Of a DNA stretch of 64,000 nucleotides, positions 21,502 to 45,553 are shown in pieces. Location: assembly GCA_044892505.1 (NCBI GenBank), contig CM097882.1:542686001-542750000 (forward strand). Reading direction: 5' to 3'. Positions within the stretch are counted from its first letter, which is position 1, and each line of letters opens with the position of its first letter. Source of the DNA: Schmidtea nova (taxonomy: Eukaryota). Under the pieces are notes generated by a model. The model saw only the letters and a list, made by a program, of their open reading frames with translations, was not told the DNA's origin and did not search any database. The translations under genes and the position numbers were made by a program.

Positions 21502-21549
<48 letters not shown>

Positions 21550-22503: not shown

Positions 22504-22550
22504 CAATAGAAATATATTTCAAGGACATAGTCCTCATCATCAGTCTACCA
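22504..22550 (-). ncRNA. Type-I hammerhead-ribozyme-like motif with canonical core
   Basis: tggtaga-CTGATGA-t-gaggac tat gtcctt-GAAA-tata-TT-tctattg: stems I and II can pair; palindromic ATATAT stem III. Confidence 0.65.
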
Positions 22551-23115: not shown

Positions 23116-23634
23116 ATTTTGTTCTACTATTCGTCACGGAATTTATCGATGCATTATTTAAAGAATTTCCACCATTTGAAGCCTTATTAAAATTCGTCGC
23201 GGATACATTTGGGGCATTATAATTAAAATCCATCGCCGATACATTTGGGCATTTAAATTTTCTATAAAACATGAAATAAAATAATAAATATACAAATATA
23301 ATTTTACCGTTTCTATAAAAACCATTATTGTTTTCATTTCCCGATACATTACTAGATACGTTTGGGATATTAAATTCCATCGCCGATACATTTTGAGCAT
23401 TTAAATGTTCTATAAAACATGTAATAAAATAATAAATATACAAATATAATTTTACCATTTCTAAAAAAACCATTATTGTTATCGTTTCCGGATACATTTG
23501 TAAAATTTCGCATTTTAATTCTTGACATTCTTAAAATAAATTACGTTTAAAAATAATAATAAAATAAAAAATAAATTCTTACCCTTGAATCCATTGATGT
23601 TGGTATTGTTGATATTGTTGATATTGTTGTACAT
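23116..23634 (-). pseudogene. Four short Asn-rich exons separated by 53-, 46- and 46-nt GT-AG introns; probable spliced leader of pPolB
   Basis: ATG at 23634 (MYNNINNINNTNINGFK); introns 23530-23582, 23410-23455, 23262-23307; donor at 23115. All junctions are phase 1 after two 1-nt frame corrections. Confidence 0.55.
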
Positions 23635-23684
23635 AGTTAATTAACGATTATAAGATGAATAAGAAATTTTGGGTTATAGTAAAA

Positions 23685-23755
23685 AGTGACTAAAATATTG
23701 AAAACATATCTTTATATAAGATATATTGCATAATATTAATTGAACCAATCAAAAT
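23685..23755 (-). promoter_or_regulatory. Pol II-type core promoter candidate: inverted CCAAT, TATATAAA, Inr-like TTAGTC
   Basis: gattggtt ... tatataaa, then ttagtc about 27 nt downstream; lies upstream of the ATG at 23634. Confidence 0.4.
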
Positions 23756-23960
23756 CGTTTATGAGAAGAAAAGATTCGCTCGCACACATACAACATGGAT
23801 TTACCAGCTGTGTGTGTATTATTATACACGTATGTTATACATATATGTTAACTCATTATAATTTACATTAATTCACATGATTACTCATGCACGATGACTG
23901 CAGATGTCATGCATTTCAATTGCAAATTTTGTATTTCAAAGCAATTAATTAAGCATATAA

Positions 23961-24380
23961 TTAATTTTTTAAATAATCTAAAGCCCCCACCAAACAACCT
24001 TTATTTGCACAATTTGTATGATCTCGATATGGGCATGAAATATTGTCAGGAAAAGATTCAACTTCTTTAATATTATACTTAATTAATTTTAGGGAGGGGA
24101 AATATCTTTTTAAAACAGCAAGTTTATCTTGATCAGTGACATAGAAAATTGCACCAACATCTTTAATTACTTTCAAAATACAAGTTGGACAAGAGTGATC
24201 TTCACCTTCATACCATTCTAATCTATCAGGTTCACCAATTCCAGCCCAAAAAGGAACATCATTATATATCCAATATCTTGGCCGAAAAATATTATTAACA
24301 TTCATAATACATAATTCTTTAATAATTATCCCACCGCAATTATCATTATAACCATAAATATCAATAAAATAACAAGTCAT
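23961..24380 (-). CDS. Intact 139-aa ORF; possible DEDD/DnaQ-fold nuclease-like Polinton accessory protein
   Basis: YFIDIYGY...IIIKELC...LEWYEG...CPYRDHTNCA pattern. The fold assignment is inferred. Confidence 0.5.
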   Translation of the reverse strand: MTCYFIDIYGYNDNCGGIIIKELCIMNVNNIFRPRYWIYNDVPFWAGIGEPDRLEWYEGEDHSCPTCILKVIKDVGAIFYVTDQDKLAVLKRYFPSLKLIKYNIKEVESFPDNISCPYRDHTNCANKGCLVGALDYLKN

Positions 24381-24419
24381 TTTTCTAAAACATTTATTAA
24401 ACTAAATTTTTTATACTTT

Positions 24420-24794
24420 TAACATTGAATTAAGCCATGCAAGACAATGTTGACCACAAGTAATTGTTAATGGATGTTAATACCGAATTCGATTATATAC
24501 AATCGGCTTACCCAATGTTTGTAGTTTACTAACTAATAAACCAGGGTAATAGCATCCGAAGGGATCGAATGCATACACCTTGCTTGGTTTCACATATACA
24601 GCAATCGAATGTTCTCCTCCTAGAGTAGATGATTGAGTATTGACGACTATGGCTTGGTTGACATCTAAATTAGGGATTTTGTCTAGTGGATATACTCCAA
24701 TAAATTCATTTCCCAATAAATGTTTACCAATTCGATTAACCTGAATAGAACTATATAAATAGATTTATATAATAAATAATAAAACTTACTCCAT
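24420..24794 (-). pseudogene. Adenain-like cysteine protease with a 39-nt intron (24751-24789) and a nonsense codon
   Basis: Spliced MDSIQVNRIGKHLLGNEFIGVYPLD; catalytic H (GEH), D (FDPFG), C (TCGQHC); TAA sits at the oxyanion Gln position. Confidence 0.88.
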
Positions 24795-24835
24795 GATAAA
24801 TTGTTAACTTTGACTTGTACATTTATATTGATAGT

Positions 24836-26049
24836 TTAAACCAAAACTGTTCGATTAGCAGTAAATTGAATTTCATTTTCAAATACTCCATATATTATTA
24901 CATGTACTGGTTCTTCAATAGCTTTAGAAAACTTTATATCCAATCTCAAATTTCCATTTTGAGGTAATTGACTTTGATTTAAATCGAAATCCGGAGCCAA
25001 AACAAATGTAAAGAAAGGGTATTTGTTTTTAAAATCGGCTAGTGTTATACCACAATTCAAATTCTTATCTAAATATCCCATAAACTAAATACCATCGACT
25101 GCATATATGTAGTACAATAATTATCATTTTCAAAATCTTGAGTATATGTTTCTCGATAATCAGTGTTTTTCGATAGAGATAGGGAAGTTACATTGAAATG
25201 TTTGAATTTCGAACTTGATGCATTATATGATCCATTGTATTGAGTTTCACTTTGAAATGCGACCAGAATGAAATTTGGCATTCTTCGATCTCCAAATATT
25301 TGTTCCTTGTAGAAAGATGATGCACCTTTACCAATAGCAAATTGTACTATTTCTTTGGTTTTCATTGGATAAATAGCGTGTTTTGAGTTAAGTCCAACTT
25401 GATGTCCAGCTAATACAACTGGAACGCGACGAATCATTAACTTTGCATCAACTAATTGACATTTTGGTGCACCGTTTTTTGAATATAGTGATAGTGCAGA
25501 ATCAGAACGCTTCAGTCTGATGTGAACATTGACACCTGGTAATAAATATTTCGGTTGATCCATGAAATCCAGTTGTAGAGATGAACAGATTGTAAATAGC
25601 TTTGAGTCTTTGATCCACGCTTTTCTCTCGTCAGAATCTCCATATCCCATTGGAGTAAGACAAGTTTCTTTAGTATAACCAATTTAATTTAAAATAGTTT
25701 CGATTATTGCCTTGTGTGCATATGTATTGTTTCCACCTTCAATCTTGATATTATTAAAACCAAGAATGGCGTCCTTGAATAGAGTATGAAACATAAAATT
25801 GTTTGGTATAACATCATCAGTTTCAGACAAATCTTTTATATCGGTATTTACAACTTTTATTTGAACTGTTTGTAAAGTATCATTCAAATACAAATATTCA
25901 GATTGAGATCCGTTAATGTAAAATTCCACATCATTTCTACCGCCTGTAATAGAATTCATGGGACATACTTCTTCAAATGCACCATATTCAATGACTGCTT
26001 GAGGAGATGGTCGGTCGAAAAGACATAATTCAGATTTAACACAAATCAT
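24836..26049 (-). pseudogene. Double jelly-roll major capsid protein (Polinton PY type), one stop and one frameshift
   Basis: CVKSELCLF...EFYING...HTLF...ETILN; QLDFMDQPKYLLPGV; FFTFVLAPD...GNLRLDIKF...VIIYGVFEN. Confidence 0.9.
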
Positions 26050-26438
26050 TTTGAAAATATAGTTTCATGTCCTTTCATTCGATTGTTTATATACCTTCGA
26101 TGCTTTTTACCTCTAGGTCCCACTTGTTCCGGTACAGGTTCAGGTTCATCTTTATTAAACATACTTGTTACTCCAGGAATCATACTAGTCACAGTCGACA
26201 GTACTTTACCAATTGCAGACAAGGCATTTGTTTTCAATTATGGTTGTATTTTCTGATCATTCATGATCACATCTTTGGCAGTTTTCAAACCAAAACTACC
26301 TATTCGCTTAAGAATTGGTAGTGCAAATCGTCCTATAGTTTTTAACCAACCTGATCCATACTGTTTACCTGCAAAATAAGGTAATTCCCCACCAGTTTGG
26401 CTATTACTATACAGTGAAATTATATCTGGATTAATCAA
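26046..26438 (-). pseudogene. Conserved Polinton virion-type protein with Gly-rich motif and amphipathic helix; internal stop at 26238-26240
   Basis: QTGGELPYFAGKQYGSGWLKTIGRFALPILKRIG, continuing in frame into MKTNALSAIGKV. Confidence 0.65.
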
Positions 26439-27240
26439 TTAATTTACGAAAATGTAATGTAAAATGTGTTTTTGAATATTTTGGAAAATTTATTAATTTA
26501 CCACTATCGTCACGGATATTTATTTCTATATTGTTTATACATGAGGTAGAAATAGGTAAGTACATTGAATTATCTATTACTATTTGTACAACTTCATTCT
26601 GTTCATATTTTTCGATCCATACCGATTTCAGTAGAGGAACCAGAGAATCAACGACAATTACTGGTTCAATAATGTTACTGTAAATGAACATTTGTTGATG
26701 ATGAACAAGAATTTTAGGTTTCACAGTCTCATCAATAAGGTTTCGATCTCTATGCGTTTGTTTAGCTAATCCTAAAGTATTGACCAAGTTTTTATTGAAT
26801 GTAACTTCACTAATATTATCATTGAGACTGAATTGGAACCATTTATTAATATCGAAAGTTTTAAAGATATGGGAGCAATTGAATGATAAATATTTAGATA
26901 AATCTTCTAATTGCACTATATACAAATCATTTGCAAATGTAAATGTATCTTCAATTTCTGCATCATAAGATATTGTCATCTTAATATCTTCTTTCAAATA
27001 ACTATTCGGTTCAAATAACACGAACTTTAATTGATATTCTTTCAGTGCACTTACAATTTTAAGTCGATTACTTCCCATTCGCTTTGCATCTTCAATATTT
27101 TCAAATGTAATTGTATATGGAGTAAAATCACAATTAATATTTAAACAGTCATTGTTAAAATACATACTACAATGAGCATTCAAAATTTGGTTGGGAAAAT
27201 TATAAATTCTTTCAAAATTGTTGATGATGAATAGAACATG
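26431..27240 (-). pseudogene. Minor capsid protein (penton/PX), N-terminus deleted
   Basis: C-terminal FIYSNIIEPVIVVDSLVPLL...YLPISTSCINNIEINIRDDSG...TLHFR signature. Confidence 0.85.
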
Positions 27241-28292
27241 TAGTATTGTTTATCCACCATTTTAGTTTTTAATATTTTTTGAATTCTAAATACAGTAGGC
27301 GGAGGAATAACTTGTAATTCTTGATCGTAAAATTTCTCACTAACTACATTATTGTCAGAGTCAGAAATAACATACATGACAGGATCTTGGCTAGTATTAA
27401 TTTTTGAGATCTGAAATACTTCATCACTCCAATTACTATCAAAATTTTTGATGAATGGCGAAGCACTAATCTTACTAATTTGAACATGATCACCAATTTT
27501 ATATTTCGGTTTCTTTATAATCGTTTTTAATTTGTGAGATTCAGTATTTTTCGTTGAAACATCAACAGGTCTCAATCCATTTATACCTTTGTGTGACGAA
27601 TGATTATAACTATGTATTATTTTTGACAGTACATTTATCCATGTTTTATTACCTTGATGAACAAAATACTTTTTCAATCGATCTCTTAATGTACGATTAA
27701 ATCGTTCAACGTGGGCGGCTTTGAATTGAGAGAACACAGAATAATGATTAACCCCGGCCAAAACTTCTTTAACTTTACTATTGTAAAATTCTTTACCTAA
27801 ATTATAATTAACAATCAACAAAATTAGTATATATTCTTACCCAAATCAGTTTGTAAATTCTTTGGACGACCGGACTTAAACATAGTTTTGATTGCAACAG
27901 CCATTTCATTTGCTAATTTAGTTCTAGTAGGAATAGCCCGAGCAAATCTTTTGAAAACATCGATACATGTTAAAATATATTTATATCCCTTGTTAATATT
28001 TGAATAGGGTATAATTTCCATCAAATCCATTTGCCACAAGTCATTAATGCCATATGTTTTATATGCTCTTGTTGGAAATCGTTTCAATGCCGGTTTGTTT
28101 AGACTCTATGCCAGTTGCCCCGATAACCATTTTTGAGTTTCTTTTTTCGAGTTTGCGACGTTTTTCTTTAGCTTTTTGACTCCACCGAAACTGGCGGGAT
28201 CTTTTGGGTTTGTCCATATCTTCTCCATTACAACAAGAAGAATTAAAATTCAATTTAAGATTAGGTAAATGAACAATCGGCAATTGACCCAT
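27241..28292 (-). pseudogene. Retroviral-like (rve) integrase with partial chromodomain and a 44-nt intron (27797-27840)
   Basis: KDPASFGGV; WQMDL (D); QTDLG|KEFYN (D, split by a GT-AG intron); HVERFNRTL (E); NWSDEVF; FRIQKILKT. Confidence 0.92.
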
Positions 28293-28304
28293 TGTTTATG
28301 ATTT

Positions 28305-28490
28305 TGAGGATTTTCCTAGTAATCCTACACCACCTAATAAAGATAATGCTAATGGTAGCAATGCCGCAATAAACCCTCCGTGTTGTTTATATATTATTTT
28401 GCGCATTTGTTTTTATTTTTAGTATTTACTAGTGATAATAATGGTTTCTTGTGTTTGTTCAACACATTTTTATTTGATTTACTAATATTA
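28305..28490 (-). pseudogene. Small basic/hydrophobic Polinton protein (QxGGF motif), N-terminus deleted
   Basis: LNKHKKPLLSL...KQHGGFIAALLPLALSLLGG; homolog at 44520-44720. Confidence 0.6.
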
Positions 28491-28751
28491 ATCATCAATA
28501 ATAATTACATCACCACTTCGTAATCTAGACGACCAGTTTTTATCGAATCCTTTTATTATTGTCATTTTAATCTTACAGAATTGATCTTGAGTCATTCCAT
28601 GTTCATCATCAGCTCCCATATGCCAATAAAGTTTGTTAAATTTTGATTTGAATAATTTTGATTGTAATAATTTACAAACAAATAAAGTTTTTCCACTTCC
28701 ACTTGGACCGACAATTTGATAAACTGCATCATTTCTTAACTCCATTTTCAA
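28488..28751 (-). pseudogene. A32/FtsK-like packaging ATPase, truncated after Walker B
   Basis: IVGPSGSGKT (Walker A) and VIIIDD (Walker B), then stop. Confidence 0.85.
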
Positions 28752-28841
28752 AATATTAAGAGTTTATGGATATTGTTTATATTTGTATTAATTAATTGTT
28801 ATACTTTTACGAAAATTATTTAAAAAATAATCAGTCTTATA

Positions 28842-29310
28842 ATGTTAAGCAACATAAATTACAAATGAAAATGTTCTGTTTCTCGTATGAAATTTCCAAA
28901 TGGTAAGCCACAGCAGATTGTAGATAGGAAAGGTAAGTATTCTATAATATTTTTCAAATCCGGTAAATGTAGAATATTGGGATGTAAACAACCTCTAAAA
29001 GATCAAGATTTATTATATGAAATAAGTGATTTACAAATACAATCGATTACAGTTACTACAGATATTGGGAAATGTGTCAATTAACATGAATTGTCACAAA
29101 ATCTCATGTTCTTATGAGCCAGAAATATTCCCGGCATTGAGATATATAAAGTATAATCCTTTATGTGTAAACATATTCAACAGTGGTAAAGTTGTTATAC
29201 TCGGTATAAAAACGTTAAACTATCATGCTTTGGTTGAAGAAATAATTAACGATATCAAATCGGTTATTGATGACGTAGAATTCTTGAAATTTTTGTTACT
29301 TGTTACGTAA
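28842..29310 (+). pseudogene. TATA-binding protein (TBP)-like gene, two nonsense codons and one frameshift
   Basis: Repeat 1: MLSNINYK...IIFFKSGKCRILGCK. Repeat 2: IQSITVTTDIGKCVN(L)HELSQ...SYEPEIFPALRY...VNIFNSGKVVILGIK. Confidence 0.8.
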
Positions 29311-29404
29311 TAAAATACAGGCTTTTGATTGGAATACGGTGTGTACGAATAACCAGTATATATAACAACATCATTTTCATTACATTTATATCAACAGTAA
29401 AAAG

Positions 29405-29731
29405 ATGTCTCTTAATAAAACGAATGGTAAGGATTGATTTTTATGTTGAAATTTTAATTAATGCGTTCTTTTGTTTTTAGAAAAACTGATGGGCGGTCTG
29501 CTTGAAAAAATGGAGGATTTGTACTCGAAAATTATGCGCGAATTGGTTTACTGCGTTCCAGAGCTCTTTTCTTATAAAATATTGGCATTAACCGGAATTG
29601 ATCTCAACAAGGTGTTGCTCGACCATCAACATAATATAGAAGAAGAAGAATGCAGCGCCAGTATTATCTGTGCCTATAGATGCGAAAGTTCCGTCAATAG
29701 GATTCAGAAATACCACAAATGGTTACTTTGA
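29405..29731 (+). CDS. Unknown protein (~90 aa) with a 54-nt intron (29427-29480)
   Basis: ATG exon MSLNKTN g|gtaag ... ttttag|aa joins in frame; the intron contains an in-frame TGA. Confidence 0.6.
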
Positions 29732-29771
29732 GAGGAGTTAAGAAACTTTTTAGGACAATAAATATTTTATA

Positions 29772-31108
29772 TCTAAAATGTCTTTTTATTGTGTTTTTTG
29801 TAAAGTATTTATTTTCTTAAAACGTACCGAGTTATGAAAGATGTTTTGTAGTTAAAATTAATTTTTATAAAATGTTGATGCTGAAAATTTATTGAAAATA
29901 ATAATGTAAAATAATTTTANNNNNNNNNNNNNNNNNNNNNNNNNNNNNNNNNNNNNNNNNNNNNNNNNNNNNNNNNNNNNNNNNNNNNNNNNNNNNNNNN
30001 NNNNNNNNNNNNNNNNNNNNNNNNNNNNNNNNNNNNNNNNNNNNNNNNNNNNNNNNNNNNNNNNNNNNNNNNNNNNNNNNNNNNNNNNNNNNNNNNNNNT
30101 TGCGATAGATATGTAAATAACTTACAATATATATATAGAAAGAAATTGCAGTAGATAATCATCAACATGCATACAAAGTCAATTATTAATACATATCCAA
30201 TTGATTTACAAGACATGTGCAAGAATCTGATTGGCTGCACACAGACGATGACGAGTATAAATAAGAAAACAAAAATAGTATTGTTCTTAAAATGCAAAAT
30301 ATTTTCAGCAAATCGAGTCCAATTAAAATGAAACCAGTTAGGAACGATAACAAATCAACTCAAAACAAATTTGATTTACGACCGGTTCAGATGTTTCCTG
30401 ATTACCAAATGTTTTTCTTGATAAACGAAATCTCTTTCAAGGTCCCAAATCCGGTAAAGCTGTCGACTTCGCAATATTCCAACTTAATTGGTCAGATTTA
30501 TAAAGAAGATGTTGTTTCAATCAATAAAGTGTTGACGAAAATCAACAAGAAATTATCTTGCAATGAAACAGTATTCATCAACAACAGGAACACCGAATTT
30601 CATGATGCATTTCAATCAGTTGAATATACGGATAATGAAAATTGGTTTATTGATATATCCATCCAAGGATATAAAATGGATCTAAGAGAAGCAATATCTC
30701 CAATTTGGAAAATAAAAAAGCGCAAGAATATCATAGTTGGAATAACATTGTTGTCATATATATGTGTATTTATTAATAAATGTTGATAAATTCTCACTTG
30801 GTGTTTTTGAAAAAATGTTTTGTAAAATTTTATGTTTTTTAAAAAAATTTTGAATTTTTGAAAATTTGAAAATCTAACCTTAAAAATTGACCTTGGTGAC
30901 CTGGGCCTTAACTTGTCCCTAAAGTGTCCTCAAAATGTCCTTAAAATCTGACCTTAAAAAAATTTATGACTAATCGTTTGTGTGTGTAAAAAATAATTTG
31001 GGGGGTAGCAAAAAAAAAGTACCATCGGGGCGTTACTTAATTTTGAATTGATGCACACACGCGATGACGTCATATGTCTTTGTTCCCCCGTCCACACTTC
31101 CTCCTACT
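29772..31108 (-). repeat. Right TIR
   Basis: Mirror of 15697-17040. Confidence 0.88.
30292..30786 (+). CDS. TIR-encoded protein, right copy (164 aa)
   Basis: Open frame, near-identical to 16078..16524, with a different C-terminus. Confidence 0.65.
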   Translation: MQNIFSKSSPIKMKPVRNDNKSTQNKFDLRPVQMFPDYQMFFLINEISFKVPNPVKLSTSQYSNLIGQIYKEDVVSINKVLTKINKKLSCNETVFINNRNTEFHDAFQSVEYTDNENWFIDISIQGYKMDLREAISPIWKIKKRKNIIVGITLLSYICVFINKC

Positions 31109-32124
31109 GTTAACACTTCCCTTCATAATATTATTGATGTTGTTCTTTTCGTAAACTTTTGACATTTGCTACTTCTAATGTCCATTTTATTTTTGATAAT
31201 CAATGGTATAAGCAAATTGATAGTGTTGCTATAGGCTCACCTTTAACTTCTACACTGGCATCTATTTTTATGTCAAGTTTAGAAAATAAATTTATAAATT
31301 GTAGTGTAAATAAACCCTTAGTATATAAACGTTATGCTGATGATATTTTTCTTGTATTTAAGAATAAAGAACATGTTAAGCCTTTTTTGTATTATATGAA
31401 TAATTTGCATAAAAATATTAAATTTACTTTTGAAGAAGAAATTTATTCTAAAATATCATTTCTTGATTTGTTGATTGAAAAGAAAGAGAAACATTTTGAA
31501 ACTGAAATTTATAGGAAAACAACGGATACTGATTTGTATACATCACCGGAAAGCTTTTGTGATTTTAAATATAAAAGAAATAAGGGGATTGGTTTATCGT
31601 TCTTGGACATTGCCGTCAACTTATTGTAAATCTATAATAAGTATTGATACATTACTTAAATTACTACAGAATAATGGATATTCAAAATGTTTCTTGCAAC
31701 GAATGGTGAGTGAAACTGTTGATAAGTGTATTAATAAGTTGAATGTGATTGATGAAAAAGTTTCTCCTGGTGTTGATTCGTTTAATACCCCTGATAGTGC
31801 TCCTTTGATTGAAACAGATGATGTTGTTATGGGAATGAATGATGGTGTTGATTCTAATAATAATAATGAAATAAATAAAAGTAACTTGAATGATTGCATT
31901 GGTTCTGTTATAGTTTTAGAAGAAAGAGTAACATTTTTGAGCATAATAAGACTTTCAAGAAGAGTATTGATATTTCTAATTTCAAAATACTTTTTAGGGG
32001 TTTTAAAAATTATTATAAACGTGTGAATTGTGAGGCTTTGATGATAAAATCATTTAATCCAAAAATAAATATACAAAATGCAATATCTACATGCATTTTG
32101 AGAGTTTTAATTAATTTTTACTAG
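31109..32124 (+). pseudogene. PLE copy 2, remainder of RT and partly deleted GIY-YIG region
   Basis: FRKLLTFATS...YKQIDSVAIGSPL...YKRYADDIF...ISFLDL...YRKTTDT; ends EALMIKSFNPKINIQ. Confidence 0.9.
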
Positions 32125-32221
32125 GGTATATAAAAGTTTTATTGGATTATGCACATGTAATTATGTAATCACTATTAAGCGTATAAATAAGATCAATTTT
32201 TATTTTATTGAGATTGTGGAA

Positions 32222-32258
32222 AGCCTGATGATGACAGCTAAGCTGTTGAAATATATTA
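32222..32258 (+). ncRNA. Hammerhead-like core downstream of PLE copy 2; stem I not evident
   Basis: CTGATGA-t-gacagc taa gctgtt-GAAA-tata. Confidence 0.45.
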
Positions 32259-32349
32259 CATTAATATATTTAAAAAATGGTGTTCTCTTATTTATATTTT
32301 TATTTTTATTATCATAATTATCTTCTCGTTTCACCTTTGATCTGTTTTT

Positions 32350-32473
32350 AATATTAATATCAATAACTCCCATAATGGTAAGACTATAGATCAAATTTTC
32401 TTTAAACAAGTGTACTTGTTAAAATAAATTTTGATATATAGTCTTACCACTATGGGAATTATTGATATTAATA
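32350..32473. repeat. Hairpin of the PLE 3' repeat, centre ~32412
   Basis: ...ttaaacaag tgta cttgttaaaa...; both arms share the private variant gtcttacca. Confidence 0.75.
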
Positions 32474-33289
32474 AGTAGTAAGATGTGTGCCAGTCAGATA
32501 CTGTACCACCCGACAATTACGTAATAATTAACCTTTGCATGCCTAAATAACGTAATAATTGACTCCTATAACATAAGGTTCGACCCGAATTGTGTCTCAT
32601 TAGACCGGTTATGTCATATTCGACCCTAGTTACGTCACGTTTGACACCAAATTCATCATATTTGACATTAATTACGTCACATTTGACCTTTAACTCATAT
32701 TACATCATACTTAACCTTTGACCGCAGTTACACCATACTTGACTTGAATTCAGTGGTTCAGTGATTCAGTAGTTCACTGGTTCAGTAGTTCAGTGGTTCA
32801 GTGGTATAATAATGGGTTGTAAGCATGTATTGATTATGTTAATTAGTTACCATGTGTGCGTAAGCAAGTAAGCGTGTTCGTAAGTGAATACGCATGTAAC
32901 GGCATAGCAACTAAAGGTCAAGGTGTTAAGGCCAACTGGGGTCAAAAGTCAAGTATGGTGTAACAGGGGTCAGAGTTCAAGTATGATACAATAGAATCAA
33001 ATGTCACGTATGATATAATATGGGCCTAAAGGCAAATATGATGTAATTATGGTCAAATATGATGTATTTTGGGTCAAATATAACATAATTGGGATCAAAT
33101 ATGACGTAATTATGGTCAAATATGTTGTAATTGGGCCAAATGTGACGTAACCGGGACTAGTGTGACGTAATTGGGGGTCGACTCTTATACAATATGAGTC
33201 AATTATTACGCTATTTATGAATCAACGGTTAATTAATACGTAATTGTCGGGGAGGGATACTGTATATGATGGGGACACATCCTAATACT
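32474..33289. mobile_element. 816-bp non-coding element with Polinton-type ends and long imperfect TIRs
   Basis: Left AGTAGTAAGATGTGT; right (rc) AGTATTAGGATGTGT; shared ccgacaattacgta...aattgactc. No TSD found. Confidence 0.7.
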
Positions 33290-33318
33290 TATATTATTAT
33301 AATTTATTATTATAATTA

Positions 33319-33364
<46 letters not shown>

Positions 33365-33394
33365 ATTATCTTTTTTCACCTTTGATCTTTTTTT

Positions 33395-33511
33395 ATTATT
33401 ATTATCAATAATTCTCATAATGACTATAGATCAAAATTTTTTTTTTATAAACAATATTGTTATTGTTTATAAAAAAAAAATTTTGATCTATAGTCATTAT
33501 GAGAATTATTG

Positions 33512-33515
<4 letters not shown>
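33395..33515. repeat. Near-perfect hairpin of the PLE 3' repeat, 4-nt spacer (33457-33460), flanked by (TAT)n
   Basis: tttataaacaata ttgt tattgtttataaa. Confidence 0.85.
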
Positions 33516-33554
<39 letters not shown>

Positions 33555-34009
33555 CATTTTCATAATTATAATTTGTTTTGTAAATGAATTGAAGCGTTTA
33601 ATCTTTCAAATTTTCTGACAACAATTCTATAACAATCAAAATGAATAAATTTTCGAATTATATCATTTCTTTCGGTTATGTTGCAAAAGAAAATTCAGTT
33701 GGCTCTGTCGGCAGAAATTCATTCACACTATGTTGGCACAAGAAATCAATTATTTAGTCCATTATTTAGTGCAAAGGATGAATAATATACTCCATTTTAA
33801 CTTGCTCAAATTATTCATTAATAAAAAATACAAATAAATAAATATAAAATTTGATTTTACTCTAAATTCGTCTCGTAATTTTAAACAAGAACAATGCAAT
33901 AAATAGCGCGAACAGAACTACAATTAACTTTCCGGAAGTTATTTTTATGATTTCATGCTTTTATAATTTTATATTCATTTTGGTTTTAGCATGGTTGGTT
34001 TATTGTTTT

Positions 34010-34018
34010 ATATTATTA

Positions 34019-34098
<80 letters not shown>

Positions 34099-34100
34099 AT
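34010..34100. repeat. (TTA)n microsatellite; similar tracts at 21502-21549, 33320-33362, 46578-46640, 48320-48381
   Basis: Read directly from the sequence. Confidence 0.95.
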
Positions 34101-34159
34101 TATTATTATAATTATCTTTTTTCACCTTTGATCTTTTTTTATTATTATTATCAATAATT

Positions 34160-34308
34160 CTCATAATGACTATAGATCAAAATTTTTTTTTATAAACAAT
34201 AACACAATATTTCGGCACAGCCTTTATCACACTTTATACACACTTGATAAAGGCTGTGCCGAAATATTGTGTTATTGTTTATAAAAAAAAATTTTGATCT
34301 ATAGTCAT
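34160..34308. repeat. Hairpin of the PLE 3' repeat, 15-nt spacer (34230-34244), with hammerhead-like motif at 34237-34277
   Basis: ttcggcacagcctttatca ... tgataaaggctgtgccgaa. Confidence 0.85.
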
Positions 34309-34493
34309 NNNNNNNNNNNNNNNNNNNNNNNNNNNNNNNNNNNNNNNNNNNNNNNNNNNNNNNNNNNNNNNNNNNNNNNNNNNNNNNNNNNNNNNNNNNN
34401 NNNNNNNNNNNNNNNNNNNNNNNNNNNNNNNNNNNNNNNNNNNNNNNNNNNNNNNNNNNNNNNNNNNNNNNNNNNNNNNNNNNNNNNNNNNAG

Positions 34494-34619
34494 AAAAAAT
34501 CTCAGAAAATTCATACTATGAATTAACCTGTGAACATTTGATATCTCATCGCATTATCATTTATAAAGCAAGTTTGACATTACATAAGAAAATTTCATCC
34601 AGTGTGAAACTTGTTTCAA
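34494..34619 (+). CDS. Host gene exon C: N-terminal half of SUEL-like domain 2
   Basis: ag| phase 1; KISENSYYELTCEHLISHRIIIYKASL...; donor a|gtaatt, phase 1. The pyrimidine tract is masked by Ns. Confidence 0.5.
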
Positions 34620-36099
34620 GTAATTTAATTATTTTTTTTATTATTTATAAATAAAATGTTTTTCTAAAAATCATATTTTCATTTATTTTGAAAACAATTT
34701 TTTACACTTGAAAATTAGAACAAAATAAAATAAAATCCTTTAGATATTATCTTTGCGAAGACCATTTCTCAACAATTCTTTCTGCCGTCAATTTAACTTT
34801 CCTAAAAACTGATCAATTTTTACCTTCTTTTCAAAAACATACAAAACATATTTTGACAGAAGAACTGTGTTGAAATCAGGCGTGACAAAATATTGTCGAC
34901 AAACTACATACCGTAAAAAATTTGTACAACCTTACATCTTATGTAAATGTCATGAATGTCATGATTATACAAATTAGTTTGATGTTGACATGAAAGAAAA
35001 TGAAAATGCATTTTAAAATTAAAATGAAAATTAAATGAAATATTGATATATAAGTGTGATTAGGGATAAAATTATTTTCAAACGAAAAAAATAATGAAAA
35101 AGAGTTATGAAAAAGTATATAAGTTTTTTATAAAATTAATAAATGATTAATTTCTCAAATTTCTATTTTGGAAACAGGTTAGATTAGATCAACTAAAATG
35201 GACAGATTGTTTGAAAAAACGTTTAGGAGGGTACACTAAACAATCCAATGAAAAAATATATAATTTTTTTATTAATTCACTAGGTATGTGATTTACTTTA
35301 TAATGTTTTATGATTATCTACTGGTTATTATACGAATTGTATGTAAATTTTATAAAATAATAAATAATATTGGATTTTATTAATTTTTATTTAAAAGATT
35401 TTTATTTTATTTAAAAAATTCACAATTTAGGCTTCTAAGATTATTATGATACTGAATAATATGGTAAAGAATCTTTTAGACATGATTCTTTAAAGGACTG
35501 AAATCTCAAAATCATGGTTTTCTATAATTATAAGGAGCACTGTATAATTAAACGCATGTTTTTCCTACTTTCTAATAATTACAAAAAAGTTTTGTAGTAA
35601 GCAAAATATTTTATTCATTTTCACGTTGAACACAGAGAATTACTCATACAAATAATAGAGCTGTTCAAATATCCCAGATTAAAGCCCATTAAATTAACAT
35701 TAAATATAAAAATTTTAAACAACTATATATATATATATATATATATATTATTTTAAAAGAATAAAGTTTTCCAAGTTATTATTACTAAAGTTTGTACTTA
35801 GTCAACAAACCAATTATTTATTAGAATGTGTCTCAAACACTAATAAAACCTCTCCCATAGCAGTCAAGGGCCTTGGTTTACCCCATGATCAGATGCTGTT
35901 ATAGAGGTTGATTATAAATAATAATAACCTTAATTATTTTACTGTGATTTATAAAAAATACTAAATGACGGTGATTTTTAGATGTTGTTTATTTTGAGTC
36001 GGTTTCTTATCTGACTCCTCGTGCTCCTATAATTTTATATCATCAAAATCCAACATAATAAATTTTATTGAATTCCACAATTTAAAAACGATAAATTAA

Positions 36100-36650
36100 T
36101 ACAATTTCATTTTATTTACTGCAAAACACTCAGCACTCTTTATTCAAACGATAGGAGTAGGTCTACCAAGAATAGATTGTCTTTTCTGGCACGCTTCACA
36201 TTTTCATTTGCTAATGTTGGGTTCCGCACTTTCTACGTTTTACTCGCCAAATTTGTTTTTCTCTTTATTTTACTACACCTGACAATTATTTCGCTTCGAC
36301 CTTGTTGTTGTTATGCATCTCTTTTAGTCTTCTCCTAATAACAATATAATAGGATTTTACAACAATTTTCCATTAATTGTATTTTAACTCTTGTGATCTA
36401 ATTGTTCTGATGGAAACAAGGTTAAATTAAATTAACCTAGGCAATAATCCTTTTAGACCTGTGACAATTAGATTTCACATCCCATTACTCCAGGTTTCCA
36501 TTGTGTTTGGGCTTCCTACATAACTAATAAGTTTTTTCATTAATTTCTAGGGACTCTATTTGTTATTTTATTATCATATTTGTACTCGTCTCCACATTTG
36601 CCACCCACATATACCAATTTTCATTGCACAAATGTCAATTTTTAATTTTC
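36100..36650 (-). mobile_element. piggyBac-like transposase C-terminal remnant
   Basis: RSKRNNCQV...CEACQK resembles the Cys-rich tail; heavily decayed. Confidence 0.35.
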
Positions 36651-37079
36651 TTAATTTTTATTTAATTTTTGTACTAATTTATAAATTGTGAATTTAACAT
36701 TTTTCAGTTTTTTTATTGATTTGCCCTCAATCCCCCGCACACTCTCGTCTCATGTTGCACCGCTTTAGACGAGCCTCGACGTATTCATTTTGTGAGCTTG
36801 TTTATGGTGGAGCGTATCCTGATTAATCTTTTACTTACTCATCTTTAGTAACTACGCTTCAATGGTTTTCTCTCAATAAATTAGTTAAAGAATTTATATA
36901 AAGCAGTGTTTTATAGACTTTTTTTTCTTTTCGGAACGATTTAGAGCATTTGTAATTTCCTGGTAGTACAGTGTATATCTGAAAATTTTTGTGTTAAAAT
37001 ATAAGTAGTACTCCAATTATGTGTAAAAATTATTTTTTTTTGTCTTTGATTTATTTATAATAGTATTGCATTACTTTGC

Positions 37080-39868
37080 TTTTTTGATTATAAATCTTAC
37101 TTCAACAATATCCTTTGATCATTAAAATGGATGCATTAAAACGTTTCTCTTAAACAATCAAGTGTCAACGCATTGCGTTCAGCTCCAATGTCCCCGTCTA
37201 CAGTAATACGGCTGTTTTGTTAATAATTTTCAACATATTTAAAACACAAATGATCTCAGATTCTTCGGCTGTATGTTTCTGATTCTCATCGAAATAAGCG
37301 GTAACTGTTACAACAACTTATTTTACTGCTTGATTTTAGTATGCTTCTATTAGGTATTTTAATTCTTTTTATAATACTTCATTCTTTTTTATCCTTAACA
37401 GTATCACAAATCAATCATTTCTGTTCTGTAAATGTTATGAAACCAAAGGTGACGTGGTTCCTTTGAAATGTTGCAATGATTTTAACTTTTCCATGTTGAA
37501 ATACTTTGACATAAAAAGAGGTACTCAAAGATTAATACTCATAACATGTTCAGATAAATGAAAGAAGATAAAATTTTGGTTGAGAAAAGTTACTTAAACT
37601 AACAAATGTTAACCAAAATCGAACGTTGTTATTGTGTATATAATGATGTTTTGTCGTGACTGCAGCTTCCTGAACTCGGTGTGTAATTTATATTTTTTAT
37701 TAACAAGTCAATAGGTTCATCCAAGGTAATGAGCGCAGAAGCCCATCACATATATGGAATTCCCAAGAAATTCAAAGGCTCAAATCAAATGTGACTTTGC
37801 CCTAAACTGCTGGAAAATTCGGCAAGAAGAAAAACGTCAAGTTTAAGATAGACCATCATATAGTCAAAAAGAGTTTGACATTGATACCCTCTAAATCATC
37901 AATGTCTTGTCACAATCGGCTTGAGTAATACCTTCCCAGTTTGATGGTAATTCGCAAGTGTTGTTAAGAATTTCTAAAGACGTGGCAAAATTATAAGGAA
38001 AAATATCCTTAAAATCAACAATAGTCCCGGTGAATTCTGATCGAGTCAAAGTCAAACAAGTAAGAGTCTTAACAGCGTCATTTAAGCTGGGATTAACAAA
38101 CTGAAAAGAATCGATGAATTTATTGGTTTAATCACTGACCCTTGCAGACAATGTAAAGAATCTTTCACTAGTTGTTAGAATGCAAGCAATTCTCCAAGTT
38201 GTAAAATCAGCAAACCATATTTAAGAATATGATGCAAGTTATAGCATTTTAAATTATGAAAAATAACAGGCAAGAACTTGTATAATTACATGTATTACAA
38301 GCAGCTCCCAAAGATTCACCAGTGTAGTGATCATAGTCTCTAACTGGTCGTACTAACGTTTTCTATCAAAGATAACAAATAGTAGCTTATGAAAAAGCTT
38401 GTTGATTGGTCCAAGTCATAAAAAGAGGTTTCTTGTAGTTATTTTTGTAAAAGGATAAACAATAGTTTCAGACAAGTAACTAATTTCAGTAAGAGCATTA
38501 GTCACACAATCAAGACCTAAGAAAGTATTTTAAATCTTTTCGTCAGTGAAATTATTTACAAGTTAAACACCGGCAGAGATAGGGATATGTCTTTGAAAAT
38601 ATTTATCAATTGCAGGTAAGATTGCCTCCAAATCGGCGTAAATAACAACAGGTGGGGTAATTGTTTTGCCCAAATTACTAAATTGTAAATTTTTATTTCT
38701 AGGCTGAGTATAAAGAGTTGTGCCCAATGGACGTTTAGCCCAAAACTGTCGATGTTTGAAAACTTCTGGGTTTGTCAAGGAATCAAGAAAAGCATCCTCA
38801 ACATTAATAGCAAGTCCGGGATTTCTAGCCTCAAATTTCAGAATATTACAAAGTCTCATTGGAAAATCAGAAGGGTCAAAGTTAAGATCAGAAAGATTAT
38901 AATTATTGCCCTATTTCTATTATTTTCTATTTCATCATATTTTAAAATAGCCAAAATGCTATAAATAAAACACAATTCATTAGAATTTCTTAAATTTACA
39001 TTACAATGTTTAAGTTGAAGAAGTTGAGGGATTTCAATATGTCCAGGCTCGCTCAATCAACTAATTTTGGCAAATTTAGTCAAAACAAAATGAATTTCAT
39101 TAACTTAATGGTCCAATTGCTGCCCTTATCATTAATTAAAACTATTATTTTCATTTAAAAGAGCCATGCCCTCATCTAAAAAGGTAACACTCAATTTGTC
39201 TTGCAAAGTTTGAAATGATGAATGATTGAAATTCACCATCTTTTTCAAATTCTACGTCAATACAAAATTGTAATTGGACAGACGCCATCTCAGTAATTAA
39301 TTGATTTAATTTATCGATTAACATTTCGGGTAACACTAAAGTTTTTAACTTTAAATTTACAACAATGTCACAATGGCATGAGACTTCAACAAGTCATATT
39401 TGACGCTGGGAAAATTAGGAACAAGAAAACCACCATATTGAACATCTATGGTGGCTTCGTGATCAGAAAGAATAACTATATCAGAAGGAACAATATCGTC
39501 GTCAGAAAGAATGACTATTTCGTCATCACTTAAGTAAATTATCTCATTTGATTTAAATTTCTTATTTGGGGTGGGACCACAGATTCTATTTTTTCTTTCA
39601 TTTTTAAAAATGATTTTATTATTATTATTAATAAAATCATTATTACCAGATGGTAATTTAAAAATAGATTTTTTCTATGTTTGAAATTGAATCAGGTGAA
39701 CCTTATGATTACTATAAAAGTCACTATACGATGAAAGACTAGTCATTTTACAAAAAGGGAAAATTAGGTAAGTGATGCGATTATAGGTGTGTGAATAATA
39801 CATTTCCATCGACTCGTAACAATTTTCATCATGAATCGAGGAATTACAATATGAGCGATATAATGCAC
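37080..39868 (-). pseudogene. pPolB of copy 2
   Basis: NVNLRNSNELCFIYSILAIL; VIYADLEAIL; DHDHYTG; KGYFPYNF; YLKLDVFLLAE. The 3' limit is approximate. Confidence 0.85.
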
Positions 39869-39900
39869 CTGTAAACGAAAGAATTATTAAAAAAATATGC

Positions 39901-39901
<1 letters not shown>

Positions 39902-39965
<64 letters not shown>
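39902..39965. repeat. (TA)n microsatellite; others at ~35725-35750, 45556-45590, 47467-47495
   Basis: Read directly from the sequence. Confidence 0.95.
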
Positions 39966-39969
<4 letters not shown>

Positions 39970-40073
39970 AATCAATTATCATACATAAAGTGTGTATATA
40001 CATACATAAATATTAATAAATAAATATCGGTTAAAATGTTAAATGATTTAATAAAATATAGATTTCGTTAAAA

Positions 40074-40547
40074 ATGTATCAACTTAAAAGTAAGTTTAAT
40101 TATCTTAAAATGATTATTTTAGGATCGAACAATAAGAGCAAACAAGAAATAATGAAAATTATTCTTGAAGAAAATTCTATTTTGGCAGCGAATCTGGTCA
40201 GAAATCCGGAAGTACAATTTCTTCAATACTCAATAGAATATTTGAAATTTCCAATCATTTATTCATTTAAAGTATATATTTATTTACTAAAAATCAATTT
40301 TTAATGTTTTCGATTTAGAAACCTGTTACATTGAAACAATGCATGAAAATTTTCAAGTGGAAAAAATTGGTGAAATTGATAGAAGAAATATTTAAGATAT
40401 TTTGTTAGCAATCAATAAAGATTGTAATTTAGAAAATCATGAAGAAAATTCAATGTATCAAATCAAGATAATGATACAAAGTTTTGAAGAATCAAACAAT
40501 GTAGCAAGACTAGTTTGGCAGACTATAGAATCAAATTTATATGAATA
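40074..40547 (+). pseudogene. Possible small spliced gene inside copy 2 (33- and 47-nt intron candidates)
   Basis: a|gtaag...ttttag|ga and |gtatat...tttag|; the last exon has an internal stop and a phase mismatch. Confidence 0.3.
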
Positions 40548-41274
40548 AACTTTATTTATCAAATCTTTTCATTGCAAATCTTTATTGAATTATTTTTATG
40601 ATTATTTAGTAACAAGTAATAATTATTTAAAGTGACATTTTAAAAATTATATAATTGATATTATTAACATGTATTTTAAAATAATAATGATTTATTTATA
40701 AGTAATAATTAATTAAAGTGTTAATTATTAAATTGTTATTATTCAAATAGTTTAAAGTGACATTTTAAAAATTATATAATTGATATTGACTGAATAGTCT
40801 ATTTAACTTTATAAATTCAAATTCAAATTAAATAAATATTCAATTAATTTGAATATAAATTTACAAAGTTAAATATTATTAACATGTATTTTAAAATAAT
40901 AATGATTTATTTACAAGTAATAATTAATTAAAGTGATATTTATTAAATTGATATTATTTAAATAGTTTATTTAACTTTATAAATTTAAATTCTAAATAAA
41001 TATAAAAATTTTTAATAAAACTTTTGAAATAAAATATTAGCTTACCAAAATTGGGATTAAGTAAAAAGTGATTTTGAAATGAATTTTTCGTTTATATACA
41101 TTACTATTACATGATACACAAGACATCAATGAAACCATGGACACACTCGTGCACATAAATTAAAATACCGTAATATTAAACAAAACAAATTGAAATAAAA
41201 TTGAAAAAAATATGAACTAAAAATAATACAATTTTTTACAATACAAACAATTATTTATTAAACATTTTTATTAA

Positions 41275-41621
41275 CCACACTATACAGTGCTGAACACATG
41301 TTTGTCATTGGATTCTGGTATCGAATTCTGTTATGTTCAATTGGCATCAACATTGAAGAAAGTTTTTTTTATCTATAACGGCCTATAGTAAAATCTCATT
41401 GAATCAAATAAGTGTATTTTATCGGGTTCAATCCAATGTTCAGCATTAAGATTTGATGATTGAGTATTTACAATCAAAGCTTTGTTCACATCAATATATG
41501 GAATTTTATCCAACAGAAAAACATCAAAAAATTCCGATCCCAAAAATTTTTGAGTAAAATATTCAATCTGAATAGAACAATTAAAAATAAAAATTTAAAT
41601 TAAATTAAAATCTTATTTCAT
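41275..41621 (-). pseudogene. Adenain-like protease of copy 2 with a decayed 39-nt intron (41578-41616)
   Basis: MN|SIQIEYFTQKFLGSEFFDVFLLDKIP; splice sites read ATAAG and TTG. Confidence 0.75.
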
Positions 41622-41649
41622 TTGATGTTAAATTTTATTCAAATTAGTT

Positions 41650-43440
41650 TATAAATAATAATGATTGAACAATCCAATAATATTCCATTCAAACCAATAT
41701 TGTACGATTAGCTGTTTTTTCATTTCCTTTTCAAAAACTCGACATACAATTACAGAAGATGATTCAGTCAATGGTGTACCAAACTTAATACCAAGTCTTA
41801 GATTACTCTGTTGAGGTAATTGACTTGGATTTAGATCAAAGTCTGGGGTCAAAACGAAGGTGAAAAATGGATTTTTGGTTTCTTAATCGGCTAATGAAAT
41901 ACCAAAATTCATATTTTTATCAAGGTAACCAAGGTTACAGACAATAGATTTTATATAGCTAGTACTACAATTGCATTTTCAAAATCTTGAGAATATTTTT
42001 CACGATAATCACTTCCTTTCGATAAAGTTAAAAATTTTACACTAAAATGATCCTAAATAGAATAAGTATAGGTAAATGAACCACAATGTCTTTTATTTCC
42101 TTGAAATGCAACAAAGATAAAGTTTGGTAATCGTCTATCACCAAAGATTTATTTTTTATAAAATGACGAAGAACCCATTGGCAATGAAAATTCTACAACT
42201 TCCGTATCTTTTATTGAATAAATTACATTTCTTGCACTAAGTCCGATTTTATGTTCAGCCAAAACCTATGGTTCAACTTGTACTCTTTTAACCAATAATT
42301 TTGCCTCTAATAATTCAATTATAGGTCCAACTTTTGTGCTTGTTAAACTACTGGCTGGGTTTGACCTCGTCAATTTAATTTGAAACTAATACCCATTAAT
42401 AAATACTTGGGTTGTTCCATTACATCAAAATGTAATGGAGAACAAATTGAAAATTGTTTTGAGTTTGCAATCCATGTTTTTCTAGTAAAGTCATGTTCAT
42501 TATATCCCACTAGAGTTAAAGATGTGTGTTTTGTATCATAATTGTAGTTGAGAATAGTTTTAATAATGGCTTTTGTGTGTAAATATATCATTTCCCTCTT
42601 CAATTTTAATAAAGTTGAAAATTAATTCAGCTTCTTTAAAAAGAGTTTGGAAAAAGAATTTGTTGGAAATAACATCAGCATCCAATCCCAAAATTTCATC
42701 TCCATCATGATCATATTTATTTATCCAAATTGATTTTTAGAGAGAAACCAATAGATCACCGACAATTATTAGTTAAATAATTTTACTGCAAATGAACATT
42801 TGCTGATGATAAATAAGATTTTCGGTTTACGAATACCATAGACCATATCTCTAAATGTTTGTCTATTCTTAATATTGATCAAGTATTTATCAAATTTAAC
42901 TTTACTAATATTATCCTTGAGAACGAATTTGTACCATTTATCAATCTACCATAGGTTATCACAATTCATTGATAGATATTTAAGTAAATCTTCAAAATTC
43001 ACCAAGATCATCAAGGTTTCTTCAATTTATGCATCATACGATATCATTATTCTGATATCTTCACTAATAGAACTGTTTGAATAAAAAAGTCCACTTTTTG
43101 AATATTCTTCTTCTTCTATACTTACTATTTTAATTTGATTACATCCCGATCGCTTTGTTTCTTTAACATTTTTAAATGAAATTCCGAATGGTATAAAATC
43201 CTAAATAATATTTAACAATCCGTTTGTCAAAACCATGTTACATTGTTGATTTAATTGATGTTTGGGAATATCGTAGATTCTATCAACATTGTTGATAATG
43301 AAAAGAACACTACATGTTTTCGGGAAATCTTGTTATGCAACTTCTCAATTACCATTTAAATAAATTGAATTTTTAAAATTGACAATGGATTTACTGACTT
43401 GTATATCTGGATATATTACCAGACAACTACAACTAGGAAA
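41650..43440 (-). pseudogene. Fused minor capsid (5') / major capsid (3') remnants of copy 2
   Basis: FYTIFPS...; QQMFICS...KSIWINKYDH runs into DADVISNKFFFQTLF...KTILNY...MEQPKYLL...TPDFDLNPSQLPQ. Confidence 0.8.
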
Positions 43441-43449
43441 AATAGTATA

Positions 43450-44519
43450 AAAATTCAGTTTACTAGATTTTTAAGGATATCCATGAAAGATTTTGATATC
43501 TATGCCACTTTATATAGTATTGTTTATCCTTGTCCATCATTTTAGTTTTCAATATTTTTTGAATTATAAATGCAGTCGGTGCTGAAACAACTTGTAATTC
43601 TTAGTCATTACATTTCCCACTAACTTCATTATTGTCATAGTCAGAAATAGCATACATGACAGAATCTTGAATAGTATTAATTTTTGAAATTTTAAATACA
43701 TCATCACTCCAATTGCTATCTAAATTTTTGACGAATGGCAAAGCGCTAATCTTAATAATTTGAACATGATTATCCACTTTATGCTTTAGTTTCTTTACTT
43801 TTACTTAAAAAACTATCGATCAAAAAGGTATCTTTTCATTTATGTGGTGAATGATTATATCTATTAATTATTTTTGGCAATACATTTATCCAAGTTTAGT
43901 TACTTTAAAGCACGAAATACTTTTTGAGTTGATCTCTTAATGTTCGATTAAAACATTCAACATAAGATACTTTAAATTGATAAAGATACCGAGTAATAAT
44001 ATCCCGGCTAAAACTTTTTTGACTTTACTGTTCTAAAATTCTTTATCTAAATTTACAATTAAATATGTAAAATATTAATATTTTCTTACTTAAATCAGTT
44101 TGTAAATTATATGGATGTCCATCTGCAAAATTTATCTTCATTGCTAGCGACATTTCATTACCAGAATTTGTTTTAGTTGGAATTGCACGAGGAAATTTAT
44201 TGAAAACATCAATAAATGTCAAAATATAATTGTATCATTTTTGAATTTTTGAATAGGGATCGTTTTCATTAAATCCATTTGCCACAAATCATTATTATCA
44301 TATGTTTTATATGCTCTTGATGTGAATCGTTTCAATATTTATTTGATTTGAATGTGTGCCAGTTGACCCGATAACCACTTTTGAGTCTTTTCTTTTGAGT
44401 TTTGAACTCTTGTTTAACTTTGCGACCCCACATAAAACTGCAGGATCTTTTCCATTACTACGAGAAGATATAAAATTTAATTTAATATTAGATAAATGTC
44501 TCAAAGGGGTTTGACCCAT
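43450..44519 (-). pseudogene. Integrase of copy 2 with a 43-nt intron (44047-44089)
   Basis: KDPAV; QTDL|KEF split by gtaag...tttag; NWSDDVF; chromodomain remnant YYIKW. Confidence 0.85.
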
Positions 44520-45553
44520 TGTTTATGTCGATGATGATAAAACTAAAGGTAACAGTGTGGCAATAAACCATTATTCTTGTTTAGATACTATTTTAAGAAT
44601 TTGTTTTCGATTTTTAGTATTTAGTAGAGATAGCAATGGTTTTGTTTGTTCAAAACTATTTTTGTTGATTTATCGATATTGATTTTACTTTAGACAACTT
44701 TTACTATAACATCAACTAAATTGTCAATAAATTAGGAAATGATTGAAGAATACTTATTCTTCTAGTACTTGGAACTTTTAACAATGCATCGAAATATAGA
44801 AAACTACGATGTTTTGAAGATTTTATTATTTTTTTCGTTTAAATTATTTTTGGTTTCAAATTATGTGACAAAGTTTTATTGAACTACTTTAATTTTTTTA
44901 TAGATTTAGTTGACCTACTAAAAATATGACCTTAAAATGAACTTAACCTACTTTTGACCTTAAAATAACCTACTTTCTTAATTTTTTAAAAAAGTTTTCC
45001 TTTGGTGGTTTTGACCTATATATGACGAAGACACATCCTACTAGTTATTTTGATGACTTTTATTGATCATAAATTTTTATATTTAAACAAATATTAAAAA
45101 AAAAGTTCATTATATATTTATTTTATTATTATTATTAATATCAATAATTTCCATAATGAATGACTATAGATTATATGTCATTAGTTTGTACAGGTTCTAA
45201 CTTTTGATTTTTTAATATTATTTAATATTTTTAAATTTTTACCCAAAATCTATAGAAATCTTTTTTTTTCACTACTTGTTAAATCGTTTGTTTAAATTTT
45301 TTAAGACTCAGAAATGGATAAAGAGATTTTTGTTTTAATTATTTCAAATACCCATACCAGTTGCTCTAAATTTTAAATTAAGAATCAAATAAAACTAAGA
45401 ATTTTTCACATTGAAGTATCTAAAATGAATCTTTGAAATTATAATTGTAGAGTTATTAAACTTATTGGAAAGAATACAAAAGTGTACAGATTGAAGGAAA
45501 AATTACAAAGGAAGGTATGAGGCTAAAATATGATTTACTTTTGTCTACGAAAG

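Follow-up and report, generated by a model that had tools for sequence, protein, structure and literature searches.

Fixed short introns of probable spliceosomal type in core genes of a Polinton lineage from Schmidtea nova

In the current study, we analyzed a 64,000-nucleotide (nt) stretch of the Schmidtea nova genome (assembly GCA_044892505.1, contig CM097882.1, positions 542,686,001 to 542,750,000 of the forward strand; referred to here as the window), which contains two broken copies of a Polinton (Maverick) element, and found that core genes of this lineage are interrupted at fixed positions by short inserts with the ends of spliceosomal introns. There are up to seven such introns per element: one each in the integrase, the protease, and an accessory gene, and four in the protein-primed family B polymerase (pPolB) gene. 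None was seen in the capsid, ATPase, or TBP-like genes, each of which is a single frame. The initial annotation of this DNA had named two of the seven; both are real, but five had been overlooked, and the two that were named differ in age. We think it likely that the inserts are ordinary spliceosomal introns and that their removal from element transcripts by the host is obligatory and probably constitutive. Given that short inserts with fixed intron ends occur in the integrase, protease, polymerase, and accessory genes, the element likely needs host splicing to copy itself.

The reading frame of the integrase gene shifts across its insert, and both sides align to uninterrupted relatives that read QTD.GKEF or QTD.G.EF, so that splicing would restore the motif, as had been proposed initially. 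The site is contiguous in 120 of 120 public homologs listed (from a search biased toward unbroken open reading frames, or ORFs) and in one intronless family of the same genome. In the 30 closest loci, each of the 31 junctions is interrupted by 44 nt with GT..AG ends. A genome-wide pattern set on exon codons alone, without demanding splice ends, matched 10,691 interrupted junctions; 10,384 of these (97%) remained when GT and AG at the same phase were required. GTAAG..YAG pieces of 37 to 48 nt occur 15 times in the window; these 10,691 anchored integrase matches, together with 9,017 matches to a GT..AG protease intron pattern, set against none in either reversed-pattern control, are beyond chance. 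Among 30 unselected loci, the first of the integrase matches, the intron is 40 to 45 nt long and falls into all three frames (4, 18, and 8 loci), its GT and final T-A-G are invariant, and unspliced reading meets a stop in 28; a 48-nt form is also present, for an overall range of 40 to 48 nt. The unspliced integrase of most copies would be truncated and lack the third catalytic residue. Of the DDE triad, we assign both Asp residues to exon 1 and the Glu to exon 2, so neither half would be functional alone.

Both integrase exons are under purifying selection. Across the 10 pairs formed by one representative of each of five intron-bearing subfamilies, the ratio of nonsynonymous to synonymous change (dN/dS) was 0.06 to 0.19 for exon 1 (110 codons) and 0.07 to 0.17 for exon 2 (approximately 176 codons), with synonymous differences of 28 to 72% (pS, 0.28 to 0.72). 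In the same representatives, the intron interiors were within 2 standard deviations of shuffles in 9 of 10 pairs. Conserved GT..AG ends around an interior and a length that drift are what is expected of U2-type introns. A TACTAAT located 12 nt into the intron from its 5′ end had been put forward as an intron feature; it is present in 2 of the 31 closest copies and in none of the 30 unselected ones, and we rejected it as a branch site. An origin of the integrase intron through tandem duplication of an AG/GT site was likewise unsupported, possibly through erosion, in that the interior resembled the flanking exons no better than shuffles did in all five subfamilies (p, 0.27 to 0.82). Some intronless relatives carry TTTAG/GTAAG at the integrase intron site.

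The protease intron, which interrupts codon 2, is present in 30 of 30 near loci and is 35 to 41 nt long among the 100 matches listed. Without splicing, the protease product would be a dipeptide, and exon 2 offers no usable start, as its sole Met is only three residues short of its end. Two patterns applied genome-wide turned up no intronless protease; they gave 0 and 13 matches, all 13 arising by chance and none being a protease start. The initial annotation had called for a check in relatives; among 43 metagenomic loci, 12 have an intron of 37 to 43 nt at the same site, 23 have a contiguous start, 2 are unclear, and 6 could not be parsed. In 6 of 16 public proteases, the start resembles a translated intron, and public entries P0121 and P0126 begin with one, bearing out the warning that ORF-only annotation misreads these genes. 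The intron-bearing proteases form one branch (SH-aLRT support, 94) with one contiguous protein nested inside it. Since it is shared with metagenomic relatives, the protease intron is older and more widespread than that of the integrase. The nested contiguous protease (P0125 / P0140) may reflect precise intron loss or a contig derived from a transcript. We also considered whether the intron is kept less than 50 nt from the capsid stop codon so as to avoid decay, and dropped the idea; the distance is 4 to 8 nt in metagenomic loci and 36, 72, and 117 nt in this genome.

Four introns divide the 5′ end of the pPolB gene. In most of the copies parsed (22 of 25 sister loci), small exons of 52, 75, 102, and 147 to 150 nt are separated by introns of 48 to 56, 46, 46, and 669 to 1,272 nt, the long one having been measured in 15 loci. 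As the parsing pattern demanded splice-like ends, the keeping of frame rather than the ends themselves is the test; the 5′ exons are in frame and without stops in 15 of the 22, with free variation in the introns. The same four phase-1 introns recur in a copy whose 5′ exons are unrelated, and all five pPolB starts found share the position of the last acceptor. The near identity of introns 2 and 3 points to exon-intron duplication. In the accessory gene, a phase-1 intron near the start was present in 9 of 11 matches.

The integrase intron was probably gained once. In a tree of the protein sequence that follows the junction (rows from the genome, 41 with the intron and 12 without it, plus 59 contiguous public proteins; stop-containing rows dropped and near-identical loci thinned), the 41 intron-bearing integrases formed one branch (SH-aLRT support, 96). 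Outside this genome, the intron was not seen in any of the three metagenomic contigs, of eight long ones, that show the junction; a protein search with exon 2 returned two short proteins (P0151 and P0153), both beginning after the junction, and IMG/VR gave no close relative. An intronless integrase pattern gave 205 matches in the genome (control, 6), mostly from one family with an open 340-amino-acid (aa) integrase. The protease intron is retained in this family; pPolB is missing from the copy examined. One member is a 14-kb palindromic element (G000:C1:17243516-17257751, loci L121 to L123) whose two arms, 99.8% identical, mirror the ATPase, integrase, and capsid genes and the protease, with no pPolB; many of the intronless-pattern matches are inverted pairs approximately 7.25 kb apart.

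Host introns gave a standard of comparison. In 10 stretches of host myosin genes, introns recognized by homology (n = 21, after two alternative calls and three long sites were dropped) were AT-rich, with GT..AG ends and a length of 43 to 70 nt (median, 50 nt). The introns of the element look similar in this comparison, which the initial annotation had proposed, those of the integrase (40 to 48 nt) and pPolB (46 to 56 nt) overlapping the host range. Several points weigh against a spliceosomal interpretation or its history as given here. The protease introns are shorter than the shortest sampled host intron (43 nt); there is no fixed YTRAY position, and no conserved branch motif, across 30 integrase introns; and the integrase frame is open in two of the four loci whose inserts are a multiple of three in length. 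A precisely lost intron would be indirect proof of splicing, and none was found among nine variant intronless integrase junctions, whose closest matches were intronless families where decay had not made placement impossible. All of the trees are quick searches, and DNA trees of 28 rows, including decayed intronless families, required three changes for exon 1 and one (support, 36) for exon 2, leaving a single gain of the integrase intron neither confirmed nor excluded. Finally, that this is a lineage dependent on host splicing, as first suggested, holds insofar as the integrase and protease could hardly be made unspliced, but we infer the splicing itself from DNA alone. When contigs from four runs of unknown kind (one study) were compared with a sister copy, none of the 15 joints displayed, of 229, fell at an intron, which is evidence neither way.

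We envisage nuclear transcription of the element by host RNA polymerase II, in keeping with its CCAAT- and TATA-like motifs and its own TBP-like gene; its transcripts would then be spliced by the major spliceosome of the host. Introns would have been gained stepwise, that of the protease (shared with environmental relatives) first and that of the integrase later, probably once, with the 5′ introns of the polymerase arising partly through exon-intron duplication. They presumably persist because DNA-to-DNA copying has no reverse-transcription step that would purge them, and selection would maintain the splice ends only.

One could suppose instead that the inserts are never spliced and that interrupted copies are passive, being moved by the enzymes of intronless relatives, or that ribosomal recoding bridges the gap. 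The same genome does have an intronless integrase family with open frames, and no RNA junction was seen. However, both exons are under purifying selection across intron-bearing subfamilies, the inserts fall into all three frames with GT..AG ends in 97%, no helper intronless protease was found in the genome, and the intronless integrase family itself has the protease intron and, in the copy examined, no pPolB; we therefore regard this explanation as very improbable. Even harder to credit is a scenario in which an introner or another small transposon entered single copies recently and independently. Introners do occur inside dinoflagellate Polinton-like elements, according to the part of that report available to us (PMC11957031), but a single position and phase per gene over thousands of copies, interiors unrelated between subfamilies, and a presence that tracks the trees all speak against such insertions here. 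The first gains may nonetheless have had an old introner origin.

A different question is whether the introns are adaptive, either regulating the timing of integrase, protease, and polymerase or mimicking host mRNA so that the element escapes silencing or gains export. Control through an intron is known for the P element, and introns are known to shield transcripts from silencing. Six of the seven introns lie at 5′ gene ends and none in the capsid, ATPase, or TBP-like genes; integrase junctions with the intron are approximately 50 times as frequent as those without (10,691 versus 205, by different patterns); and planarian Polintons are described as targets of PIWI-interacting RNAs in the accessible portion of one study (PMC8532177). 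On the other hand, intronless open-frame integrases have also spread in this genome, and the intronless state is the rule in relatives; there is no conserved intron interior that could carry a regulatory signal, and the argument from copy number is correlative and drawn from a single genome. We consider an adaptive role unlikely, and no result supports the proposal in the initial annotation that the introns regulate integration or maturation. A more speculative version, which we would call doubtful as a whole, is that the lineage adopted host gene architecture stepwise (its own TBP-like factor, CCAAT/TATA promoters, and 5′ introns in enzyme but not capsid genes) as a disguise from silencing, and that this enabled it to exceed 10,000 copies.

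The features of the two copies are listed in Table 1. Copy 1 (15,412 bp) has terminal inverted repeats (TIRs) with the termini AGTAGG and CCTACT and is flanked on both sides by GTTAAC, a 6-bp target duplication; a second natural copy has another 6-bp duplication. Its membership in the Polintons is further indicated by pPolB (PF03175, over cut-off), a retrovirus-like DDE integrase (PF00665, below cut-off for exon 1 and over it for an intronless relative, whose chromodomain match is below cut-off), and an A32-like ATPase and adenain protease (PF04665 and PF00770, both of which exceed the cut-off in a sister copy); in copy 1 itself, Pfam matches were obtained for pPolB, integrase, protease, and TBP. 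That core genes are intronless, a trait that the literature treats as descriptive rather than definitional, does not hold here. Both copies are disrupted by stops, frameshifts, and deletions; in copy 1, integrase exon 1 contains a stop, the integrase, protease, and capsid genes are frameshifted, half of the ATPase gene is deleted, and the pPolB gene is in pieces. The positions, lengths, strand, and ends of the four inserts first reported were all reproduced, including the loss of both splice sites from the protease insert of copy 2. The two copies had been treated as one family and do share their intron sites, but with a DNA identity of 66 to 73% they are distinct subfamilies, copy 2 being the older. 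The family has more than 10,000 copies in this AT-rich, 1.25-Gb animal genome, which has matches to myosin and TDP-43.

Table 1. Coordinates (window positions) of the two Polinton copies and their features
Feature	Position	Strand	Remarks
Polinton copy 1, broken	15697..31108	.	Termini, 6-bp duplication, inverted arms I2, I3, I7, I8, I10
Left TIR	15697..17049	.	Includes a 157-aa ORF with no assigned function
pPolB main coding region, fragmented	17277..21860	-	PF03175, E 1.7e-10
pPolB long intron 4	21861..23115	-	1,255 nt, phase 1
pPolB intron 3	23262..23307	-	46 nt, phase 1; sequence almost that of intron 2
pPolB intron 2	23410..23455	-	46 nt, phase 1
pPolB intron 1	23530..23582	-	~52 nt; acceptor damaged in copy 1
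pPolB exon 1 with start codon	23583..23634	-	CCAAT-/TATA-like motifs upstream
Protease exon 2 (adenain family)	24417..24750	-	PF00770, E 0.0022; 7.4e-6 in sister copy, over cut-off
Protease intron, copy 1	24751..24789	-	39 nt, phase 2 in codon 2, GTAAG..ATAG; unspliced frame stops inside donor
Protease exon 1	24790..24794	-	Start codon plus two bases
Major capsid candidate (double jelly roll)	24839..26106	-	No intron seen; one 425-aa frame in sister copy
Candidate minor capsid gene (by position only)	26431..27249	-	No intron seen; one 353-aa frame in sister copy; no Pfam match
Integrase exon 2 (catalytic Glu by motif, chromodomain)	27180..27796	-	Frameshift near 27237; rve_3 and Chromo below cut-off, sister copy
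Integrase intron, copy 1	27797..27840	-	44 nt, phase 1, GTAAG..TTAG
Integrase exon 1 (both catalytic Asp by motif)	27841..28228	-	Stop codon 28106-28108; PF00665 positions 5-73 of 102, E 2.1e-6, below cut-off
Packaging ATPase, 3′ half missing	28485..28763	-	No intron seen; PF04665 Pox_A32, E 1.3e-6, over cut-off, sister copy
TBP-like gene	28842..29310	+	No intron seen; PF00352, E 4.6e-9; 4.8e-16 in sister copy
Accessory Cys/His-containing ORF, intron	29427..29480	+	54 nt, phase 1, after codon 7; ATG 29405, exon 2 to ~29758
Right TIR	29764..31108	.	
Polinton copy 2, old, heavily decayed	37701..44811	-	Gene order as in copy 1; tblastn pieces; ends not defined
Protease intron remnant, copy 2	41578..41616	-	39 nt; GT and AG both lost
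Integrase intron, copy 2	44047..44089	-	43 nt, GTAAG..TTAG; GT..AG kept

The major capsid candidate has no Pfam match; an ESM Atlas score of 0.98 to clusters in which 15% of members carry PF21738 is a lead, and a single-sequence fold of the candidate had a pLDDT (predicted local distance difference test) of 30. The 5′ end of the integrase gene is overlapped, in a different frame, by a short ORF starting with Met-Gly (28059-28295, minus strand), which metagenomic loci L199 and L201 conserve. Several element genes are preceded by CCAAT- or TATA-like motifs. By motif, the TBP-like gene is also found in metagenomic relatives L196 and L201, and cargo ORFs of such relatives (L199:919-1260 and L201:225-722) resemble a dual-specificity phosphatase and a ubiquitin-conjugating enzyme. 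One copy has a TDP-43-like piece (L124:5034-6062; PF18694 and PF00076) within its pPolB gene; as this DNA recurs at no fewer than 40 places, it is carried by some mobile element. Copy 1 appears to interrupt an ORF (15213-15735 and 31138-31629) that looks reverse-transcriptase-like by its motifs. Elsewhere in the window, a 34-nt spacer separates the perfectly matching 1,097-nt arms of an inverted repeat (981-3208), which holds two mirrored 329-aa ORFs without a Pfam match, and there is a tandem array of a 49-nt unit (8751-9485).

Dependence on splicing, if true, puts the expression of the element in the nucleus, as is the case for adenoviruses. Several datable intron gains, intronless sisters, and thousands of copies make this a rare system in which to ask how introns originate and whether they benefit a parasite. 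Moreover, where intactness is scored by unbroken ORFs or by prokaryotic gene callers, as the accessible parts of two reports indicate (PMC8097293 and PMC10120064), active intron-bearing lineages would be scored as dead.

Fixed spliceosomal-type introns in core genes would be a departure from the usual, intron-free description of Polintons. We found no account of them in the literature searched, which excluded subscription journals, Repbase, and supplements, nor in the available portions of PMC6431247, PMC8502044, PMC10748475, PMC10675990, PMC11296320, and a Halocafeteria preprint; likewise, the part of a Dugesia preprint that describes a Maverick expansion does not mention introns. As far as the excerpts available go, intact vertebrate Mavericks are said to lack introns, with Kapitonov and Jurka 2006 cited (PMC8097293), a prokaryotic gene caller was used on the premise that Polintons are intron free (PMC10120064), and nematode Mavericks have introns in cargo genes only, their core genes being intronless (bioRxiv 10.1101/2022.07.12.499685).

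With animal Polintons/Mavericks and adintoviruses (PMC8097293; bioRxiv 10.1101/2022.07.12.499685; PMC8502044), the present lineage shares TIRs, a 6-bp target duplication, pPolB, a retrovirus-like integrase with a chromodomain, an A32-like ATPase, an adenain protease, and candidate capsid genes, and an adintovirus figure legend names a TBP-like gene as well (PMC8502044). It differs in that their core genes are described, in the portions available, as intronless, whereas its own have fixed introns. Three other systems offer partial likenesses, each drawn here from part of the report cited. Introner-bearing Polinton-like elements of dinoflagellates also have intron-type inserts inside them (PMC11957031), but these are active introner copies gained mostly after integration; the introns described here are fixed, lineage-wide, and diverged in their interiors, with purifying selection acting on the exons to either side. 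Ginger1 has an integrase-like transposase with one to four GT-AG introns at conserved positions, yet Ginger1 elements are small cut-and-paste transposons without polymerase or capsid genes (PMC2836005). Cryptophyte Polinton-like viruses do contain introns (PMC12220804), but these are self-splicing group I introns of 309 to 376 nt in a small gene, in contrast to the AT-rich GT..AG introns of 35 to 56 nt found here.

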